Positions 50,923-63,786 of a stretch of DNA of 64,000 bases are shown here, one piece after another (within the stretch, counting starts at the first letter, position 1; every line of letters starts with the position of its first letter). This stretch comes from Myxococcota bacterium (lineage in GTDB: Bacteria; Myxococcota_A; UBA796; GCA-2862545). The position numbers were made by a program, and so were the translations under genes. The stretch lies in assembly GCA_039208735.1 (NCBI GenBank), contig JBCCQY010000028.1, positions 1 through 64,000 on the forward strand, written 5' to 3'. The notes below the pieces were generated by a model. It searched no databases and had not been told where the DNA came from. It was given only the letters and a program-made list of their open reading frames with translations.

Positions 50923-51029
50923 GACAAGAATGCGAGCATAACGACTCGCTCCCCCAGGGGCTTGGCGAGGGTCTCACCACGGCTCAAGCCCGGGTCCCAG
51001 GTGACCGATGCACGCCATGGAGGGCAACC

Positions 51030-51794
51030 ATGGACTTCAGTACCGCCGGCGGTTTCGCGGCGTGCTTCGGACTCATCGCCATCGGCATCATCTTGGGTGG
51101 CGCGGGCTTTGGCGCCTACATCGACCCCCCATCCGTCGCGATCGTTATCGGCGGAACGATCGGTGCCGTCATGATTGGATTTCCCTTGGCGGACATCATG
51201 AATGCGCTGAAAGCCTTGCGCATTGCCTTCATGCCGCCCAGTCACGACATGAAGTCGACCGTGAAGCAGCTCGAGGAGCTGTCGCAGCGGGCACGCCGAG
51301 AAGGCCTGCTTTCGCTGGAAGAAGCCGCTGAGGCAGCCGAGGACGACTTCTTGCGTCGCGGCCTGCAAATGATGGTCGACGGTCATGAACCGGCCGCCAT
51401 TGAGTCCGTGTTGTTCGGTGAGATCGATAAGCTCGAAAGCCGTCACAAGGTGAGCATCAACTGCTGGGACTCCCTCGGCGCTTACGGTCCTGCAATGGGA
51501 CTTATCGGGACGCTGATCGGTCTTGTGCAGATGCTCCAAAGCATGTCGGACCCCTCCACGATTGGTCCTGCCATGGCCGTGGCCCTCCTCACCACGTTCT
51601 ACGGCGCCATCATCGGCAATGTCGTGGGGATTCCGACCGCCAACAAGCTCAAGCAGCGGTCGGCCGAAGAGATGGCCCACATGGAACTCATCGCCCAAGG
51701 TCTCATCTCGATCCTGGGTGGCGAGAATCCGCGGTTCATGGTCGAACGCCTCAACTCCACGCTGCCCCCGAATCAGCGTGAAGAGGCAGCCTGA
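51030..51794 (+). CDS. motA: Flagellar stator A subunit (MotA/PomA)
   Basis: ARREGLLSLE, PAMGLIGTLIGL, GPAMAVALLTTFYG. Confidence 0.93.
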   Translation: MDFSTAGGFAACFGLIAIGIILGGAGFGAYIDPPSVAIVIGGTIGAVMIGFPLADIMNALKALRIAFMPPSHDMKSTVKQLEELSQRARREGLLSLEEAAEAAEDDFLRRGLQMMVDGHEPAAIESVLFGEIDKLESRHKVSINCWDSLGAYGPAMGLIGTLIGLVQMLQSMSDPSTIGPAMAVALLTTFYGAIIGNVVGIPTANKLKQRSAEEMAHMELIAQGLISILGGENPRFMVERLNSTLPPNQREEAA

Positions 51795-52513
51795 TGGGGC
51801 GCCGAGCGAAATGCGATGAGTGCAAGCCAGGTCTTCCGGCCTGGATGGGCACCTATTCCGACCTCGTGACCCTGATGATGGCCTTCTTCGTCATGCTCGT
51901 GGCGATGGCCAACTTCGAGGACACCAAGCGAATCGAAGCGGTGGTGGAGTCGATCCACACCGCGCTTGGGATGCGCGGCTTCGACAGCAAGATGGTTGCC
52001 GTCAGCAAGAAGCTTCAATTCACCGAGTCGGTGCGCCGCGACCAAACCGTGGAGCCCGTCGTCGCCAAGCTGCGCCAGGCCATGGCCAAGCACATGTCGG
52101 ACGACTTCGTGCGAATGGTGGAGCAGAAGAAAGAGCTGCGCATCAAGCTGAACGGTCGGGTGTTCTTCCAACCTGGCTCCGCCTTGTTGCACCCAAGTTC
52201 GTATGCGATCCTTGCCGACCTCGGTTCGGCGCTGAAGGATGAGAAGGTCCTCCTTCGGGTCGAGGGCTATGCCGATGAGTCTGGCAACGAAGAGGCCAAC
52301 TGGAGCCTCTCCGGTCAACGGGCGCTCGCCGTCGTGCTTGCGCTACGCGAAAAGGGTCCGATCAAGGGCAAGTACCTTGAGGCGGTGGCCCATGGTTCGT
52401 TCCACCCCGGCGCCAAGGAGCCCGAAAGCTCCGATTGGGCCCGCCGGGTCGACATTGTGCTTTCGACGGATGATCTAGCGGGCGCGCGGGCCGCGGGCCG
52501 CTTCATGGAGTGA
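51794..52513 (+). CDS. motB: Flagellar stator B subunit (MotB/PomB)
   Basis: PGLPAWMGTYSDLVTL with the conserved Asp; OmpA-like NWSLSGQRA...RRVDIV. Confidence 0.92.
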   Translation: MGRRAKCDECKPGLPAWMGTYSDLVTLMMAFFVMLVAMANFEDTKRIEAVVESIHTALGMRGFDSKMVAVSKKLQFTESVRRDQTVEPVVAKLRQAMAKHMSDDFVRMVEQKKELRIKLNGRVFFQPGSALLHPSSYAILADLGSALKDEKVLLRVEGYADESGNEEANWSLSGQRALAVVLALREKGPIKGKYLEAVAHGSFHPGAKEPESSDWARRVDIVLSTDDLAGARAAGRFME

Positions 52514-53010
52514 GCGTGGACGACGAAGACGACGAGTACATCGTCCAATCCGGCGGGGGCGGCAACATGATGATGACGCTCATCGTGGGCGTCGTTGGCT
52601 TCCTGCTGGGTGCAGGAGCCGGATTTGGCGGGGCGATGTTCCTCGCCGAAGAGCCAGAGTGTGAGACCGAAGCCGAAGGGGAGATGGCCGAACTCGGTCC
52701 GCAAGCGGACGAGCGTGTCATGCATTCGCTCGGCCGGTTCACCGTGAACCTACGGGGTACCGGCGGCGGCCGTGTGTTGCGAATGGAAGTCCAGGTGGAA
52801 ATCGACGGGACGCAGCAGGAGATGGTCGAAGCCAAGACCCCCTTGCTGCGAGACGCGGTGCTCACCCTTGCCTCGGACTACACCTTCGGCGACCTCGAAG
52901 GGCTCGACGGCAAGATGCGGTTCCGCGACGAGCTGCTGGCCAGACTCAACTCTGCGTTGTCGGTCTCCGGGATCCGGCGAATCTACTTCACTGAATTCGT
53001 GGTGCAATAG
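52510..53010 (+). CDS. fliL: Flagellar basal-body-associated protein FliL
   Basis: N-terminal TM; FTVNL; LRDAVL; IYFTEFVVQ C-terminus. Confidence 0.92.
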   Translation: MSVDDEDDEYIVQSGGGGNMMMTLIVGVVGFLLGAGAGFGGAMFLAEEPECETEAEGEMAELGPQADERVMHSLGRFTVNLRGTGGGRVLRMEVQVEIDGTQQEMVEAKTPLLRDAVLTLASDYTFGDLEGLDGKMRFRDELLARLNSALSVSGIRRIYFTEFVVQ

Positions 53011-53892
53011 GTGTCTCGCGATCAGCTGCTTTCCAGGCCCGATCGGGCCGCCCTCGGTCTTGTTGCAGACCTCTTCGACGCCGCGACGCTGCACCTGCGG
53101 ACCTCCATGGTGAAGCGATGCGGCGGTGAAGTTGCCGTGCGACCGGAGCAGCCGATCGTGCGTCATCTCAACGATCTGCTCCACCCTCCTGCGGATCAAC
53201 CCATGGGCGCCACCGCTCCCTTCACCCTGGTTCCTCACCAGGTGAGGGGGCTCATCACACTCGATGTTCCGCTGGTTCAACGCCTCGTTGGCTTGTTTCT
53301 TGGGGAAAACCCTGATCAAGAGACGGAAACCAGCGCGGCGCGGCGCCTGACGCGGGTGGATATGCAGATGGCACGGTGGATCTGCCAAGACATCGCCGAC
53401 TCGATGGTCGCGGCTTGCAAGATGCCAGATCCCCCGCGAGCCGAGGTCGGTGAGGTCTACTCCAATCCTCGTTCGGTCCGCGCGCTGCCGCAGTCGCCCT
53501 CGGTCATCGAAGTCGAGGTCGAACTCGGGCCCGAAGCCAACCCTTTTGGACGTGCCGCCGTGGTCCTTCCCGCGCAAGCGAACGGCGTGCTGTGGCCCGA
53601 GCGCCGACAGTCTGGCCAAATCCGGTCGCCCCTCACCGACGAAGGGGTGGACCGTGTGCGCAGCGTCCCCGTCTCGGTCGTGGCGAGCATCCATCGCCAA
53701 CGGGTCCCGATGCGAGAGCTACGCGAATTCAAGGTTGGCGACGTCATCGAGATGGGCAGCGTGCGAAACGTCCTCGTCCACGCGAAAGGTCGCGCCATTT
53801 TGAACGGGGAAGCGGGCGACCAAGATGGACACCGCTGCATTCGAGTCGTCGGGCGGATTGGACCTCAAGGGGACTCCACACCGAACCGATGA
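53011..53892 (+). CDS. fliM: Flagellar motor switch protein FliM (divergent)
   Basis: Lies between fliL and fliN; LFLGE...RRLTRVD middle domain; C-terminal SpoA-like KVGDVIEM. Confidence 0.7.
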   Translation: MSRDQLLSRPDRAALGLVADLFDAATLHLRTSMVKRCGGEVAVRPEQPIVRHLNDLLHPPADQPMGATAPFTLVPHQVRGLITLDVPLVQRLVGLFLGENPDQETETSAARRLTRVDMQMARWICQDIADSMVAACKMPDPPRAEVGEVYSNPRSVRALPQSPSVIEVEVELGPEANPFGRAAVVLPAQANGVLWPERRQSGQIRSPLTDEGVDRVRSVPVSVVASIHRQRVPMRELREFKVGDVIEMGSVRNVLVHAKGRAILNGEAGDQDGHRCIRVVGRIGPQGDSTPNR

Positions 53893-53911
53893 AGCCGACA
53901 GGAGTGAAACC

Positions 53912-54184
53912 ATGAGCGGTGATCCGACTTTCCTGTTCGAAATCCCCGTTGAGCTGGTCGTGGAACTCGGTCGCACTGAGCTGACCGTGGGCGAACTGGC
54001 TGAACTCGGCCAGGACGACATCGTCAAGCTCGACTGCCTGGCGGGCCAGCCTCTCGACATCGTGGCTGGCGGACGGCTCTTTGGCCGAGGAGAGGTCGTC
54101 ATCGAGGAAGACCGGGTGGGGGTTCGCATCACCGAACTCATCGGTCAGGCCTCGGCGTCCCACGTCCTGGCGGAGGCCGGGTGA
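53912..54184 (+). CDS. fliN: Flagellar motor switch protein FliN
   Basis: IPVELVVELGRT...GEVVIEEDRVGVRITE (SpoA domain). Confidence 0.9.
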   Translation: MSGDPTFLFEIPVELVVELGRTELTVGELAELGQDDIVKLDCLAGQPLDIVAGGRLFGRGEVVIEEDRVGVRITELIGQASASHVLAEAG

Positions 54185-54837
54185 TCGTTGGGGGGCTCAT
54201 CGTTGCCCTCGCGAATGCGCAGCCCGTTCCTGACGAAGTACAGGAGCTGCCCCGTTCGGAGGTAGAGCGATTGCTAGGACCCGAACCGGCAGGCCCTCCC
54301 GCCGAGCTGGCCCCGCGTCCCGTGATCGACACCTTCAGCTGGTGGCCGTTTGTATTGGTTGGCTTGGGGGCGGGTGCCCTGTGGTGGATTCGACGCCGCA
54401 TTGAACAGGGCCCGGCCAAAGACACGGGATCGGAGCTTCGCGTCGTGGGCCGAGCAGACTTGAGCGGTCAATCGGCCCTTGCGGTGGTTGAAGTCCGCGA
54501 TCGAAGTGGTTCATGGCGCCGCCTGGTCATTGGTACGGGCGATGGGACGCCCCAACTCGTCGCCGACCTCGGAGAACCGCAGTTCGGCTTCCTCGGTGAG
54601 GACGAAGACTCCACCGTGCAGGAGCTGGGATTCGTACCCCCCTCTCCGAAGGCTTCGGTCGAGGACTTGCCGAGCGATTTCGCACCTTACGAACCGCTCC
54701 CCTCACCGAGCGAGGCGGGCTTGCCCCCTCTTCCCGCGGATCCGAAGTCAGGCCGCGCTCTCGTGCACGAGGTCCTTGGCGAGCGTCGACGAAAGCCTCG
54801 ATCCAGACGGTCCACCTCGTTCCAGACCTTTGCGTGA
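54181..54837 (+). CDS. fliO: FliO-like flagellar protein
   Basis: TM followed by LRVVGRADLSGQSALAVVEV...LVIG; follows fliN. Confidence 0.65.
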   Translation: MIVGGLIVALANAQPVPDEVQELPRSEVERLLGPEPAGPPAELAPRPVIDTFSWWPFVLVGLGAGALWWIRRRIEQGPAKDTGSELRVVGRADLSGQSALAVVEVRDRSGSWRRLVIGTGDGTPQLVADLGEPQFGFLGEDEDSTVQELGFVPPSPKASVEDLPSDFAPYEPLPSPSEAGLPPLPADPKSGRALVHEVLGERRRKPRSRRSTSFQTFA

Positions 54838-58912: not shown

Positions 58913-58946
58913 ACAGATACCCTTCGGGGCAAACTCGGAGGGCTTG

Positions 58947-59990
58947 ATGTGGATGTGGTGGCTTGTGGCCTGTGTTTCGCTGCCCGAACAGCAGGCGGAA
59001 TACCTGCGTGGCGCCTATTTCAACTGGAATGGCTTCAACCACCGCGTATCTGCCGTGCAATTCGCGGCCAATGAAGGGCAAGCCGAAATGGTGGTCATCG
59101 GCGGCACGTCCACCACCCTGACTCCGGCCGACCTCGATGATGGCTGCGACCCCGGCATCTGCCTCGAGTTTCCGTTTATCGACAACTCGGTGGCCCGCTT
59201 GGGCTGGGGCCGCCTGACCTCTGACACCGTCGCGCTTGGCACAGGGTCGGTCGAGTTTGACGTCCCCCGAGCGGGCGCGTCCAGCACCCTCGACATTGAA
59301 CTCGACGGGGTTCCGGGTGGCGAAGTGACGGCCATTCTGACGGGGTTCGGGCTCAACACCGACCGTCCGTTGGCGGGCGAGGCGGCCTGCTACCGCCCCG
59401 AGTACGGCTGGCACCCTCGGCGCATCGCGCTTAGCATCGACGACGTCACGGTCAGCGGCAAAACGGCCACGGTGGCCGTGAGGGCTGCGTTCGAGGCCGG
59501 CGCCACCTTCGAGGCCGAACGCGTCTGCATCGATGAGGTGTTTGAGCGCGCGGTGGCCGCCATGCGTCTGGACGTGCTGGTCTTGGCCGGAGTGGACGTG
59601 GTCACCGCCCAGACCATCACTGCGGCCGCCGACTATCCCTTCGGCGACCAGGTGAATCCCAAGCCCCAAGAAGAAGCCGAACCCACGCCCCTCAGCAACG
59701 TCGCGCCGGTGAATGGGTGGCAATCGGTCGACTTCGCATTCGATGCCGGCGACGGCCGCGGCGCCTACCTCCGAAGTTTCGGCTTCGAGATTACCGAGGC
59801 GGGGGCCGCAGGCATCGCGACCAATTTCTCTCCGGGAACCCAGCTTTCTGGCATGTCCTACACCTTCGAAGGGACCGTCCTCGCCATCGAGGCGGACGGT
59901 GCGGTGCAGACCGGAACGGTAGCCGTTGAGGAACTCCCTGCCGAACTCGATGGCGACGACAACCCAGAGGTCCAGACCTTCCCACTTTGA
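58947..59990 (+). CDS. Hypothetical lipoprotein
   Basis: GGAGG RBS; MWMWWLVAC; beta-rich acidic body. Confidence 0.65.
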   Translation: MWMWWLVACVSLPEQQAEYLRGAYFNWNGFNHRVSAVQFAANEGQAEMVVIGGTSTTLTPADLDDGCDPGICLEFPFIDNSVARLGWGRLTSDTVALGTGSVEFDVPRAGASSTLDIELDGVPGGEVTAILTGFGLNTDRPLAGEAACYRPEYGWHPRRIALSIDDVTVSGKTATVAVRAAFEAGATFEAERVCIDEVFERAVAAMRLDVLVLAGVDVVTAQTITAAADYPFGDQVNPKPQEEAEPTPLSNVAPVNGWQSVDFAFDAGDGRGAYLRSFGFEITEAGAAGIATNFSPGTQLSGMSYTFEGTVLAIEADGAVQTGTVAVEELPAELDGDDNPEVQTFPL

Positions 59991-60056: not shown

Positions 60057-61247
60057 ATGGAGCGTGGCATGGCGGGAGATGACGACAAGGGCAGCGGTGG
60101 AAATCCTGGCATGCCTCCCGGGATGCCTCCCATGCCTGGGATGCCCCAGATGCCCGGAATGCCCATGCCCGGAATGCCGCAGATGCCCGGCCAAATGCCT
60201 GGGATGCCCCAGATGCCCGGCCAAATGCCTGGGATGCCCCAGATGGGGATGGGACAAATGGGCGGCGGCAATCCCATGATGCAGATGATGCAGATGATGC
60301 AAATGATGATGGGGGGAGCGGCAGCCCCCATGGTCGACCCCTCGGCAATGCCGTTTGCGATGAGCGCGCCCGTTCCCGACCAGGATCAAGGGCTCGATTC
60401 CGACATCATCCGTCCGGCGACGTTCGATGAATTGGTGCGCGAGCAAGAACCTCTGCCGACGGGATCGATCCTCGATCAACTCTGCCTTTCGGCCGACGGT
60501 GCAACAGCGTTGGGTGGCATTCCCAAGGGATGCACCATGGCGTTTGTGGGTCCTCCCGGCAAGGGCAAGACGCGGACGGCGCTTGCGGCCCTCGCGCGGA
60601 CCGCTCAATCGGGCATGAAGGTCGCGTTCGTCGTCGCCGAAGAAGGCTTCCACACCGAAAGCGGGAGTGGGCGCGACGACCTTTGCTCGCGGCTCACCAA
60701 GATCGGCGGGGCCGTCACGGGACTCGACGAAACGGCATTCCGCGAACAGGTGCTCGACAACCTCTACGTGCTCGAGTCGCAGTACCACAAAGGTCAGACC
60801 TGGGACGACTTCATCGCGCGGTACCGCTACCTCGTCGAGAAGGCGGAAATCGACTTCGTGGTCATCGACTCGCTGAACATGCTCGACCCAACCAAGCACC
60901 GCACGGCCGACAACCTCTCCGCCCTCAAGACCTACAACCACGAAAAGGGTGTGACCTGCCTTTGCATCGGGCAGATCAAGGACACGGGCCTTCCGGTGGG
61001 CGGCGAAGCCCTCATGCACACCGCCGACGCCGTGTTTCTCATCGAACAGCTCTCGCTCGGCAGCAAGGACATGGCCGCCCTGTGGGGAGGAGCCTACCGC
61101 GACAAGATCGATGTCATCCGCGCCGTGAAGTCGGTGACCACGCCCACGTTCCCTCATTTGGCCCGCGTCGAGCAGGCCGCGGACACCGGCGCACTGGTCG
61201 TGCATGAAGCACAGCCGGCCGACTTTGCGCTGCCCGAGCTGCCCTGA
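60057..61247 (+). CDS. KaiC-like/RecA-superfamily ATPase with Met/Pro/Gly/Gln low-complexity N-terminus
   Basis: PTGSILDQL...LGGIPKG, Walker A GPPGKGKT, VAEE, Walker B VVIDSL, MHTADAVF, IRAVKS; alternative start at 60069. Confidence 0.85.
   Translation: MERGMAGDDDKGSGGNPGMPPGMPPMPGMPQMPGMPMPGMPQMPGQMPGMPQMPGQMPGMPQMGMGQMGGGNPMMQMMQMMQMMMGGAAAPMVDPSAMPFAMSAPVPDQDQGLDSDIIRPATFDELVREQEPLPTGSILDQLCLSADGATALGGIPKGCTMAFVGPPGKGKTRTALAALARTAQSGMKVAFVVAEEGFHTESGSGRDDLCSRLTKIGGAVTGLDETAFREQVLDNLYVLESQYHKGQTWDDFIARYRYLVEKAEIDFVVIDSLNMLDPTKHRTADNLSALKTYNHEKGVTCLCIGQIKDTGLPVGGEALMHTADAVFLIEQLSLGSKDMAALWGGAYRDKIDVIRAVKSVTTPTFPHLARVEQAADTGALVVHEAQPADFALPELP
60110..60311 (+). repeat. Coding tandem repeats: MPG/MPQ tripeptides, an exact 2x30 bp unit at 60181-60240 and ATGATGCAG 9-mers
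   Basis: AGATGCCCGGCCAAATGCCTGGGATGCCCC occurs twice in tandem; MMQMMQMMQMMM. Confidence 0.9.
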
Positions 61248-63175
61248 TGCACTTCGTCGACACCGACGACCTCCGCAGCTGGCTCGCCGCGGACGACCAT
61301 CTTCGCGACTACACCACCGGCATCGGGCGCAACGCGTTGTCCGACCGGTTCATGGAGCGCGAGCTGGGGCTGCCCCTCCACCTTGCCTTCGTGATGCGCC
61401 GCCTCGTCGCTGAAGATCCCGCGGCCACCATGGAGCGACTGTCCTCCATCCCGTTTTACAGCCTCTGCAAAGCGTTGTTCCTTCCCTTGTCCGGCATGTC
61501 GCCCGACAAGGCAGGCGCCGTGTTTGGGCTGGCCACTCCCGCCCCGCCTCGGGCGGCAGAACGCGAGGTTCTGCTCGGCGAGTTTCTAAGCAAGGACGTC
61601 GGTCTCGACCTTGTTCAGAAACTGTCGTGCATCTTGGGGGATCCGTTTCGCGGCAAGCCGGCCACCCTCAAGCGCGACTCGCTCATCACGTTGTTGCTGT
61701 CGATGCAGCTCACAACGCGACGTCAGCTCCTGGATCGACTCACCGTCGTCGGCGATGTCGCGGTTCTTTTTGCGGAGTCCCGGTCCGAGCCGGTCGGCAA
61801 CAAGACGTTGACCGCGGCCGAGGTGCTCGAGACCTTGCGCACCCTCGCCCAACCGGGGGTCGGCCGAACGTTGAAGTTCTCGCTGCTTCGATCGGTGGTG
61901 GAGCGATGCAGTAAGCTCGAAGCCTACTTCCTCGCCAAACTGGTGCTCAAGAAAGCGGGGTTTGGCTTCGACTACCAAGGCCCCCTGCTCGCACGCTCCC
62001 TTGCCGAGCACTTCGGCGCCGCGCCCGAAGCCGTCGCCCACGCCATGGCGCTCACCGACGCATTTCAGGTCGTGGACCGGTTGGCGCGGGAAGGTTCTGC
62101 CGGCCTGCAAGCGATTCAACTGCAACCCCTCGTCCCAGTCCGCCCGGCCTTGGCCACCGGATCGAGCGACGCCATCAAGCAGTTTCCCGTCTGGGTGGAG
62201 CGCAAGTACGACGGCATCCGCTTCATGCTCCACAAGTCGACCGACGCACAAGGGGCGGTGCTTTGTGGGGCCTACACAAGAACGCGTCGGGACTGGCTCG
62301 AGTTGGTGCCAGGCCTTGCGGCGAGCATTCGAGCGTTTCCCGCCCGCACCGCGATCGTGGATGGGGAACTGTATGGAGTGGTCGCGGGGAATTACGGAGC
62401 CCGCCCCGCAACCGTTTACGAGCTGTACGCGGTGCTACAGGGCGAAGCCAAGCCCCTGCAGATCAAGTTCGCTGCGTTCGACCTGCTTTACGTCGAGGGG
62501 CGTGACCTCACCGGCATGCCGTGGAACCAACGACGCCAGTTTCTACAGACCCTGCTCGGCCCCATGCAGCACTTCCCGCTGATGGTGCCCATGCAGCTTG
62601 CCGAAGGCCAGTACGCCCAGGGCAAGGACGATGTGAATCGGCTCTACGGCCACTTTCGAAGCCAGGGCTACGAAGGCATCATTGCGAAAGATCCACAAGG
62701 CCCCTACCGACTCGCCCAGCGCGACCCGACCTGGACCAAACGGAAGCCCGCCATCACCCTCGATCTGGTTCTGCTCGCGGCGGTGTTCGCCGTGACCGAG
62801 AAGAAGACGGCGGGGGTGTTTGGGTCGTATGTGATTGGCGCCCGCACGGCCGATGGTGGCTTCGTCGATGTGGGCGACGTCGCGGGGGTCGACGTGCAAC
62901 GCGACCGCCAACTGCAGGCCGAAATCATGCGCGAAGGGTTGATCACGGGCCAGCGCGTTGAGCGCAAGAGCATGTCGGGAGCGCGTCCCGGCATGGAGCT
63001 TAGGCCCCACATCGTCGTCACGGTGCGATTCGAGGGCATCGTCAAGGACTCGACCACCCAAGAACTCAAACTCCGAGATCCGAAGCTCGTCCACATTCGA
63101 AGCGACAAAAGCGCATTCGAAGCCGACTCGGTCAAGACGATCGAGACTCTTTGGATCCGACAGAACATGGGCTGA
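61247..63175 (+). CDS. ATP-dependent DNA ligase with long N-terminal (DNA-binding-like) domain
   Basis: Motifs ERKYDGIR, IVDGELY, FAAFDLLY, YEGIIAKD, WTKRK; OB-fold LDLVLL...LRDPKLVHIRSDK. Confidence 0.92.
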   Translation: MHFVDTDDLRSWLAADDHLRDYTTGIGRNALSDRFMERELGLPLHLAFVMRRLVAEDPAATMERLSSIPFYSLCKALFLPLSGMSPDKAGAVFGLATPAPPRAAEREVLLGEFLSKDVGLDLVQKLSCILGDPFRGKPATLKRDSLITLLLSMQLTTRRQLLDRLTVVGDVAVLFAESRSEPVGNKTLTAAEVLETLRTLAQPGVGRTLKFSLLRSVVERCSKLEAYFLAKLVLKKAGFGFDYQGPLLARSLAEHFGAAPEAVAHAMALTDAFQVVDRLAREGSAGLQAIQLQPLVPVRPALATGSSDAIKQFPVWVERKYDGIRFMLHKSTDAQGAVLCGAYTRTRRDWLELVPGLAASIRAFPARTAIVDGELYGVVAGNYGARPATVYELYAVLQGEAKPLQIKFAAFDLLYVEGRDLTGMPWNQRRQFLQTLLGPMQHFPLMVPMQLAEGQYAQGKDDVNRLYGHFRSQGYEGIIAKDPQGPYRLAQRDPTWTKRKPAITLDLVLLAAVFAVTEKKTAGVFGSYVIGARTADGGFVDVGDVAGVDVQRDRQLQAEIMREGLITGQRVERKSMSGARPGMELRPHIVVTVRFEGIVKDSTTQELKLRDPKLVHIRSDKSAFEADSVKTIETLWIRQNMG

Positions 63176-63786
63176 TGATGTTGTTGGAAGGTGACTTTGA
63201 GGATGAGACCTTCGAAGATTTGGAAGCGTCCGGCGTCACCATCGAACGGGCCATCTACGAGCGTTGTCGGTTCGTGGGCTGCGCCTTCGAGGAGCTGGCG
63301 TTCTCGGATTCTCGTTTTGTAGACTGCAGTTTCGAGCGGTGCAACCTGGTTGGGGTTCGCTTTGTCGACACCCTCTTGCAAGGCGTCGCCTTCGAAGGCG
63401 GGCGCGCCATGGGCCTCGACTTCACCCAGACGCGCAAGCTGTCCTTGTCGCTGCGGTTTACCGACGCCAAGGTCGATCTGTCGAATTTCGCAGGGTTGCC
63501 GTTGCGCGGAACGCGTTTTGAGGACTGTAGCCTTCGCGACGTCATCTTCGACGACTGCGATCTCCGTGAGTCGGTGTTTAAGGGCTCGGACCTTGCCGGA
63601 GCGGTGTTCCGGCATGTCAAACTCGCGCGGGCGGACCTTCGCAAGACCCGCAGCGCGCTCATCGACGTGGCCACGTGTTCGTTAGGGGAAACCCAGATCG
63701 ACGTGGACACTGCGTTGGCGGCGCTTCGCGACGTAGGGCTGCACTGTGCCTCCCTCGAAGAGATGTTTGGCCAACGAGACGCGTAA
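63175..63786 (+). CDS. Pentapeptide repeat protein (Qnr/MfpA-like)
   Basis: Repeated CRFVG/CAFEE/SRFVD/CSFER/CDLRE/ADLRK units; TGATG overlap with the ligase. Confidence 0.9.
   Translation: MMLLEGDFEDETFEDLEASGVTIERAIYERCRFVGCAFEELAFSDSRFVDCSFERCNLVGVRFVDTLLQGVAFEGGRAMGLDFTQTRKLSLSLRFTDAKVDLSNFAGLPLRGTRFEDCSLRDVIFDDCDLRESVFKGSDLAGAVFRHVKLARADLRKTRSALIDVATCSLGETQIDVDTALAALRDVGLHCASLEEMFGQRDA

Follow-up and report, generated by a model that had tools for sequence, protein, structure and literature searches.

A conserved ATPase–ligase gene pair from a Myxococcota bacterium, likely an uncharacterised accessory DNA-repair module

Introduction

Here, we describe a two-gene module found on contig JBCCQY010000028.1 of a Myxococcota bacterium (assembly GCA_039208735.1), in which a single-domain RecA/KaiC-fold ATPase (P0001) is followed by an ATP-dependent DNA ligase of the LigB/archaeal type (P0002). 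The window, i.e. the whole stretch of DNA analysed, covers positions 1 to 64,000 of the contig. The ATPase and the ligase form a real, conserved and co-inherited module whose genes are usually coupled, and in the predicted complex the ATPase docks on the ligase's DNA-binding domain (DBD). On balance, and with moderate confidence, we read the ATPase as a likely dedicated, nucleotide-controlled loader or activator of the ligase in an accessory DNA-repair pathway. The parts of the module are known folds; the pairing of a ligase with a RecA-fold ATPase appears to be new, and it likely marks an uncharacterised accessory DNA-repair module.

A preliminary description of this locus had proposed an unrecognised repair or protection module made up of the ATPase, the ligase and a pentapeptide-repeat protein. 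The part concerning the first two stands, since they are conserved, co-inherited, predicted to bind each other and matched to no described system, but the pentapeptide-repeat protein does not hold its place as a member.

Layout of the locus

Three open reading frames (ORFs) of 396, 642 and 203 aa, the last counted from its first ATG, were confirmed on the forward strand (Table 1), joined as previously described by TGATG overlaps at 61245-61249 (ATPase/ligase) and 63173-63177 (ligase/pentapeptide gene). For the ATPase, a start at ATG 60069 is more likely; this codon has a GGAG 6 nt upstream and gives the 392 aa of the database call. Pfam identifies the products as KaiC/RecA, DNA_ligase_A_N/M/C and pentapeptide repeats, and none of the three reaches any NCBIfam family cut-off. 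The GC content of the region agrees with that of the remaining window, a promoter scan found no sigma-70 site, and the closest homologues carry Myxococcota labels.

Table 1. Features of the ATPase–ligase locus, in window coordinates unless a related locus is named
Feature	Coordinates	Strand	Basis
Single-domain RecA/KaiC-fold ATPase P0001, core member	60057..61247	+	Pfam, model, structural matches
Low-complexity N-terminus rich in Met, Pro, Gly and Gln, with a conserved Met-rich helix at its end (NPMMQMMQMMQMMM)	60069..60317	+	Alignment
N-terminal arm, aa 103-126 (GLDSDIIRP), predicted main ligase contact	60363..60434	+	Complex model
Walker A, GPPGKGKT	60549..60572	+	K171 in 140/140 rows
Walker B, FVVIDS	60855..60872	+	D271 in 140/140 rows; catalytic EE (aa 195-196) upstream
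K358-S-V360, lysine kept, arginine-finger position not Arg	61128..61136	+	Alignment
ATP-dependent DNA ligase P0002, DBD–nucleotidyltransferase (NTase)–OB fold (LigB/archaeal type), core member	61247..63175	+	Domains, model, structure matches
Extra helical N-terminal domain, ~65 aa	61247..61441	+	Solved ligases align from residue ~66
DBD, with most predicted ATPase contacts (aa 62-220)	61442..62116	+	Complex model, alignments
Catalytic lysine K320, motif I (KYDG)	62204..62206	+	118/118 rows
Motif VI, R-D-P-K versus archaeal R-F-P-R	63074..63085	+	Alignment to archaeal ligases
Pentapeptide-repeat protein (AlbG/MfpA-like), coupled here, not a conserved member	63175..63786	+	PF13599, E 5e-26
Small gene upstream of the ATPase in related loci	L061 7420-7662, L066 225-473, L076 7391-7660, L090 4699-4950

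Conservation and co-inheritance of the pair

GTDB genomes were scanned with the ATPase and the best 80 of 92 relatives were kept. These share 61-88% identity and come from genomes titled Myxococcota, Planctomycetota, Acidobacteriota and Eremiobacterota/Xenobia (some submitter labels look wrong); cultured carriers of the family are Minicystis rosea and Ca. Uabimicrobium. A neighbourhood survey for ligase linkage had been suggested earlier, and it bears the linkage out: 42 of the 80 loci have an orthologous ligase downstream on the same strand, and 35 of the 38 genomes whose ATPase has no adjacent ligase encode an orthologue at another site (E 8e-112 or better), leaving one with a weak match only and two with none. 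A profile search of two of these three draft assemblies upheld the result.

Among the 41 ATPase–ligase junctions scored at E 1e-20, 15 overlap, 20 are separated by 0-30 nt, two by 31-150 nt and four by more than 150 nt, so that 35 overlap or sit at most 30 nt apart. One of the four longest is an artefact of the look-back limit and the others hold inserted genes (L090 6174-7909, L054 3033-4264, L069 2061-2342), which comprise an AAA_21 ATPase and DUF4276 pair, three unknown small ORFs and a helix-turn-helix gene.

The two genes also share their distribution. Across 40 relatives, the ATPase occurs in eight; seven of these have the orthologous ligase, which is found in none of the other 32. A sample of 251 genomes of the same phylum, source genome included, was searched with the N-terminal half of the ligase only, and the ATPase was present in seven genomes, the ligase half in six of them and a shortened adjacent ligase in the seventh (G202). 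Both genes occur in the same five of 251 genomes around G050 (Planctomycetota by locus title) and in the same three of 181 around G046 (Acidobacteriota). Taken together, the 683 genomes include 15 with both genes, none with the ATPase alone and no ligase match among the 668 without the ATPase, counts to be read knowing that each sample contains a centre genome picked for having the ATPase and that kin among the genomes are not independent. The pair is present in 2-3% of the sampled genomes of each phylum.

Trees of the two proteins agree across 65 pairs, pairs with a truncated or frameshifted member being omitted (r 0.88, with 0 of 1000 permutations as high), and 23 of 27 supported splits in the ATPase tree and 28 of 35 in the ligase tree are common to both. 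In the ligase tree, sequences from Planctomycetota and Myxococcota are intermixed.

Two genomes carry apparently damaged pairs. In G202, a 469-aa ligase with an internal loss of most of the DBD lies beside an ATPase whose Walker B aspartate is changed to asparagine (L144 6770-9165, contig C52), a position that is Asp in 78 of the 80 ATPase loci, the other two not being parsed. The coincidence counts towards a joint function of the two proteins, but it is a single case and could reflect decay of both genes. In G078, the ATPase match is without the first ~70 core residues and the ligase of the same assembly is frameshifted (L110 8025-8669, L135 1492-3349), through either decay or assembly error.

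Predicted ATPase–ligase complex

The preliminary description had suggested modelling the two proteins together. We predicted the complex of the full ligase with ATPase aa 72-396, alongside three controls, and it passes, with values of the interaction prediction score from aligned errors (ipSAE) of 0.68, 0.68 and 0.66 against 0.00 for the best control. The mark used is reached by 116 of 157 solved pairs and by 2 of 215 mismatched pairs; with the custom alignments used here, these figures are only approximate. The runs agree on at least 62% of contacts, the predicted local distance difference test (pLDDT) score of the partners is at least 75, and we know of no solved complex of a RecA-fold protein with a ligase that the model could have copied.

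In the model, the ATPase arm (aa 103-126), together with aa 250-257, 282-296 and 321-322, faces ligase aa 40-220. Arm residues G112, L113, R119 and P120 are conserved at 88-99%. The ligase contacts include aa 180-192, which align with the loop carrying the QKSFF motif of archaeal ligases, described as the PCNA contact of the Pyrococcus furiosus enzyme in the available text of PMC13136779. The ATPase is accordingly predicted to bind the ligase directly, its arm docked on the DBD over the position of the archaeal PCNA loop.

The ligase

As previously described, the 642-aa ligase has an N-terminal domain, an NTase domain and an OB fold, and PF04675, PF01068 and PF04679 all match above cut-off. 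Its AlphaFold2 (AF2) model has a pLDDT of 88.6 and matches archaeal ligases and human LIG1 over aa 66-641; by sequence, the archaeal replicative ligases come nearest (2cfm, E 8e-30; profile E 5e-55). The catalytic motifs I, III, IIIa, IV and V are intact, with K320, D322, G323, E374, F411, D412, E476, K481 and K500 present in all 118 alignment rows. Ligase aa 178-189 align with KQKSFFSQPLT of P. furiosus, and the DBD is without a QKSFF-type PCNA motif.

The extra N-terminal domain has no Pfam or NCBIfam match, and a structure atlas gave no usable match for aa 1-130 (aa 1-65 were not folded alone). We considered whether it could be a fused version of the TIGR03879 partner domain, which is plausible by eye; this candidate found no support, as none of six ligase N-termini matched and a profile comparison gave probabilities of 0.6-1.4%, with 4 of 100 shuffles as high.

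No phosphoesterase (PE) or polymerase (Pol) domain is present, and the ligase does not belong to the LigD/Ku system of non-homologous end joining. The earlier remark that Ku, LigD domains and Lhr are missing nearby extends further: Ku was not found in the whole source assembly (92.7% complete), and its Lhr-like matches are below cut-off and all on other contigs. LigA is present in this assembly, as are three further matches to ATP-ligase domains. From their sequence, two are read as one LigB-like gene, truncated where its contig ends, and one LigC-like gene. The third is a weak, divergent match (L029, G000:C83:36331-36801; E 3e-7) in a 416-aa frame, which makes a fourth ligase-like gene of this genome. 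Across the genomes tested, LigA was found in six of six, Ku in one of six and PCNA in none of five. Because LigA is present, the ligase is not the replicative one; with Ku mostly absent as well, a role in accessory repair is likely.

Motif VI sets this family apart. Residue 611, the nick-aligning Phe in the archaeal R-F-P-R, is Phe in none of the 118 rows (D in 93, G in 13, S in 11, E in one), with R610, P612 and R618 invariant, and the RPxPF segment reads RPA[TS]VY. These changes would suit a ligase that seals a non-standard substrate, such as an RNA–DNA junction or mismatched or bridged ends, with the ATPase annealing or aligning the ends in a Ku-independent form of end joining or annealing. 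In the available text of PMC11418127, human LIG1 F872A efficiently ligates a nick with a 5'-ribonucleotide; the RadB-like protein Sak4 anneals single strands according to that of PMC5928155; and the rarity of Ku (one of six genomes) points the same way. The equivalence of D611 with F872 is itself deduced from the motif, however, F872 mutants are less efficient on mismatches in the available part of a preprint (bioRxiv 10.1101/2024.11.07.622578), and no end-processing enzyme travels with the pair. We regard this explanation as unlikely overall, although it is partly compatible with a loader or activator.

The ATPase

The ATPase core (AF2 pLDDT 92.8) belongs to the RecA/KaiC superfamily by its RecA fold, Walker A, catalytic glutamate and Walker B; E195, E196 and Q306 are invariant in all 140 alignment rows. 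The single KaiC-like domain noted previously is seen again (PF06745, E 4e-10), as is its insertion between LDQL and LGGIP. The best structural matches are PH0284 (Z 23.8, root-mean-square deviation 2.8, 216 residues aligned), KaiC C1 (Z 23.8) and Sso2452 (Z 22.1), followed by RadA/Sms (Z 21.5) and RAD51 paralogues (Z 20-21).

Two further features stand out. The N-terminal region of ~100 aa, which went unmentioned in the preliminary description, is rich in Met, Pro, Gly and Gln. Of 119 homologues scored, 111 have a Met-rich segment ahead of the core; a median of 81 aa lies before the arm, with 24% Met, 16% Pro and 14% Gly. At the end of the last core strand, K-[SC]-[VI], without Arg, is found in 79 of the 80 loci; the K358 position is K in 137 of 140 rows and the next-but-one is V in 128. 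The sister clade described below has C-R or N-R at this site. By analogy, the retained lysine could act in trans like the lysine finger of RAD51 paralogues.

Classification with hidden Markov models, proposed earlier for separating KaiC-like families from RadA/Sms and RadB, gave KaiC-like TIGR03878 (thermo_KaiC_2) as the nearest full-length alignment, with every family cut-off missed. The ATPase scores 22.9 bits on TIGR03878 over aa 150-349 (cut-off 232; control member 424), and 34.6, 17.6 and 32.9 bits on RadB, RadA/Sms and RecA (cut-offs 172, 403 and 325), the RadB match having an E-value of 2e-8. It is not a circadian KaiC, having one domain rather than two in tandem and scoring 14 bits against an NCBIfam cut-off of 408. 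At the positions that we take to be the KaiC Ser/Thr phosphosites and K-x-R arginine finger, it has M320/H321 and K-S-V, which match neither.

A search of 1.84 billion representatives returned 127 relatives. A middle group at 34-53% identity, with one member named Thorarchaeota, has the same K-S ending. A sister group at 24-29% (~30%), with one member named Promethearchaeota, ends in C-R; several of its members have an N-terminal extension resembling a winged helix, and its best-scoring family is TIGR03878, at a still sub-cut-off 86-117 bits. In a quick tree that carries long-branch warnings, our ATPase family groups with the middle group (support 90), apart from the sister group, which joins a true TIGR03878 member (100). 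Archaeal-named homologues (Thorarchaeota, Promethearchaeota) thus exist; a metagenome scan gave one locus, which was spurious.

These affinities raise the possibility that the ATPase is a KaiC-type signalling switch, which would bind the ligase away from DNA, hold it inactive or stabilise it until its nucleotide state or the stress state changes and frees it, and never touch DNA itself. We find this rather doubtful. TIGR03878 is the nearest full-length NCBIfam alignment, the top structures (PH0284, KaiC C1, Sso2452) are KaiC-like, the L1/L2 loops are short, and the gene of a true TIGR03878 member overlaps, in the manner seen here, that of a small regulatory partner; the modelled position on the DBD could, moreover, block closure of the ligase clamp. 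Yet M320/H321 stand where KaiC presumably has Ser/Thr phosphosites, no sensor or KaiB-like gene recurs as a neighbour, and the ligase N-terminus has no detectable relation to the TIGR03879 partner domain. For KaiB, the statement covers the recurring neighbours of related loci, as a family search for KaiB was not made.

A likely loader or activator of an accessory ligase

We return to the reading that we favour, a loader or activator. LigA in six of six genomes, Ku in one of six and PCNA in none of five indicate that the ligase is accessory and works without both known scaffolds; the ATPase therefore likely takes the scaffold role. The ATPase arm and the surface formed by aa 250-257, 282-296 and 321-322 would dock on ligase aa 40-220. 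Because this patch coincides in part with the PCNA-binding loop of archaeal ligases, the ATPase may stand in for the clamp that carrier bacteria lack. In RecA-family proteins, the arm and the H321 face presumably touch the neighbouring subunit. The ligase would then occupy this face, either capping one end of a short ATPase oligomer or holding an ATPase monomer; such a capped oligomer or monomer would fit an arginine finger that is lost while the lysine is retained. By binding or turning over ATP, the ATPase would put the ligase onto a nick or gap end, or free it from there, and the ligase would act without need for Ku.

A bolder form of this proposal, which we offer tentatively, is a clamp-free ligation machine: a RecA-fold ATPase whose oligomer face has turned into a ligase dock would replace PCNA for an archaeal-type ligase in bacteria and phage, and would use ATP to deliver this ligase, with its altered nick-reading motif, to non-standard DNA ends. 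If true, the ATP-dependent ligase pathways of bacteria would gain a fifth class, next to LigB, LigC, LigD and LigE.

Several observations weigh against the reading of the ATPase as a loader or activator. The pair is unlinked in about half of the 80 loci, mostly in Planctomycetota, and three of the 38 genomes without an adjacent ligase, all draft assemblies, yielded no orthologous ligase. Agreement between the trees is expected of any two co-inherited genes, and shared descent alone suffices for it. Mean conservation is no higher at the interface than in the remainder (ligase 0.68 versus 0.64; ATPase 0.72 versus 0.75), though many contact residues are near-invariant, and G202 retains a 71%-identical ATPase though its ligase has lost most of the predicted interface. 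The L1/L2 DNA-binding loops of the ATPase look short in the alignment, by what we take to be the RecA standard, so its binding to DNA is not assured. No nuclease, polymerase or helicase recurs as a conserved neighbour of the pair. Finally, the available text of PMC7470946 describes LigB-type ligases as autonomous nick sealers working without a scaffold, and such enzymes would have no obvious need of a loader.

The pentapeptide-repeat protein

The third protein resembles AlbG/McbG-like and MfpA structures, and its gene is translationally coupled to the ligase here and nearly so in one same-genus genome. These facts are what speak for the original three-gene reading, in which the three proteins would act jointly to repair or prevent breaks induced by topoisomerases. 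The gene adjoins the pair in just one of the 80 ATPase loci, and it is distributed independently among the 40 relatives: homologues occur in nine, seven without the ATPase and two with it (only one beside the ligase), and six of the eight ATPase-bearing relatives have none. Its scores are far below the cut-offs for MfpA (61.7 against 360 bits) and Qnr (48.2 against 240). The pentapeptide gene was rejected as a member and is a local addition, and the proposed link to topoisomerase-induced breaks loses its support with it. We consider the three-gene reading very improbable.

Neighbouring genes, phage and other loci

Clustering of neighbours across 80 ATPase and 30 ligase loci gave no third conserved gene; the neighbours are mostly housekeeping or unrelated genes. 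In the window, a flagellar motor/switch cluster at 51008-54837 on the forward strand (MotA, MotB, FliL, FliM-, FliN- and FliO-like by reading) is followed by ArgRS, peroxiredoxin and asd, a context that appears from its sequence to be ordinary housekeeping. Between asd and the ATPase lies a 348-aa ORF (58944-59990, forward strand) with a lipoprotein-like N-terminus and a sub-threshold Pfam match only. Since none of the 80 related loci has it, and in the same-genus locus L031 the ATPase comes straight after asd, it looks like a recent insertion.

Some related loci have company of their own. A gene of 80-90 aa with a VSEKGAxSVYGMGRFPVTLY motif and no Pfam match lies directly upstream of the ATPase in four Myxococcota loci (Table 1) and was not found in the source genome. 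In six to seven related loci (L034, L035, L036, L037, L040, L044, L075), PolX-PHP is upstream and SbcC/SbcD are nearby on the opposite strand; the PolX and SbcCD genes of the source genome sit on other contigs than the pair. A UvrD/PD-(D/E)XK (AddA-like) gene is directly downstream of the ATPase at L051 (8910-12119) and L053 (1060-3918), two close Planctomycetota loci whose ligase is unlinked.

In IMG/VR, one record only carries the pair, joined by a GTGA overlap (L149 1252-9758, G304). Here, the pair is flanked by an AAA ATPase/phrog_20456 cluster on one side and a SNF2-like helicase on the other; the motif VI residue of the ligase is G, and its OB domain has diverged. The contig is likely that of a tailed phage, because a nearby stretch reads as tape-measure-like, YqaJ/RecT-like and primase-helicase-like proteins. 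A second viral contig of 107 kb (L168 5992-6984) encodes a sister-clade KaiC-like ATPase that keeps the C-R finger, near TROVE-like and ThiF-like genes (by reading); no ligase was found within 6 kb. Plasmid and named-phage collections searched with the ATPase gave no match, and viral scans with other queries found nothing.

This phage record bears on whether the pair is a conflict module that reseals nicks made by phage or host nucleases, as defence in cells and counter-defence in phage, and spreads horizontally. Its sparse occurrence (2-3% of sampled genomes per phylum), the interleaving of Planctomycetota and Myxococcota in the ligase tree, the tailed phage with the pair and the toxin-antitoxin-like genes beside or between the pair in a few loci (L090, L116, L117) are all consistent with such a role. 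PADLOC 2.0, by contrast, matches no family for four proteins, the neighbours are mostly housekeeping or unrelated, and plasmids and named phages yielded nothing, leaving the one IMG/VR record. Identity of 61-88% across phyla and persistence after gene separation are, in addition, unlike fast-evolving defence genes. We judge a conflict role quite improbable.

Comparison with known systems

A literature search found no description of the ATPase–ligase pair; Makarova et al. 2017 (mBio, KaiC-like ATPases) and its supplements were outside its scope and may list such neighbourhoods. The available text of the review PMC7470946 sorts the accessory ATP-dependent ligases of bacteria into four classes. 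The pairing corresponds to none of LigB-Lhr, LigC, LigD-Ku and LigE as set out there; the words 'RecA' and 'ATPase' do not occur in that text. This scheme, in which three-domain ligases work without a scaffold, has no place for a three-domain ligase that is inherited together with a RecA-fold ATPase and predicted to bind it. Both proteins are soluble, an interface is predicted and carriers are in culture, which makes the question directly testable. Few targets of single-domain KaiC-like ATPases are known, and the pair gives one branch of them a concrete partner.

The ATPase resembles TIGR03878 and the archaeal single-domain KaiC-like proteins (PH0284, Sso2452/aRadC, FlaH) in its one RecA-fold domain, the insertion before LGGIP and the EE after strand 2, with Z 22-24 to PH0284 and Sso2452. 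It differs in its score (23 bits against 232), its lack of an arginine finger, its Met-rich N-terminus and its partner, which is a ligase and not a TIGR03879 domain. RAD51 paralogues (BCDX2) and archaeal RadB share the RecA fold (Z 18-21), and a 'lysine finger' acting in trans is described for RAD51 paralogues in the available text of PMC7614784. Our ATPase scores 35 bits against the RadB cut-off of 172 and has no helix-hairpin-helix N-terminal domain, and the literature search found no RAD51 paralogue described with a ligase partner.

In the archaeal ligase–PCNA complex, the partner likewise sits on the ligase DBD, near the same loop to which the ATPase is predicted to bind; the ATPase fold is unrelated to PCNA. 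The LigB-Lhr-MPE-exonuclease cluster, as given in the available text of PMC7470946, also joins an accessory three-domain ligase to an ATP-using partner. Here, that partner is a RecA/KaiC-fold ATPase and not a superfamily 2 helicase, no Lhr, MPE or exonuclease recurs, and the ligase scores 75 against a cut-off of 400 on TIGR04120. The closest relatives by both sequence and structure are the LigB and archaeal–eukaryotic Lig1-type ligases (P. furiosus 2cfm, Thermococcus gammatolerans 9dfa, human LIG1), which are alike in their DBD–NTase–OB architecture, in motifs I, III, IIIa, IV and V and in being accessory to LigA. Compared with these, our ligase is 22-25% identical, falls below all NCBIfam cut-offs, has an extra 65-aa N-terminal domain and no QKSFF PCNA motif, reads RDPK in motif VI and is paired with a RecA-fold ATPase.

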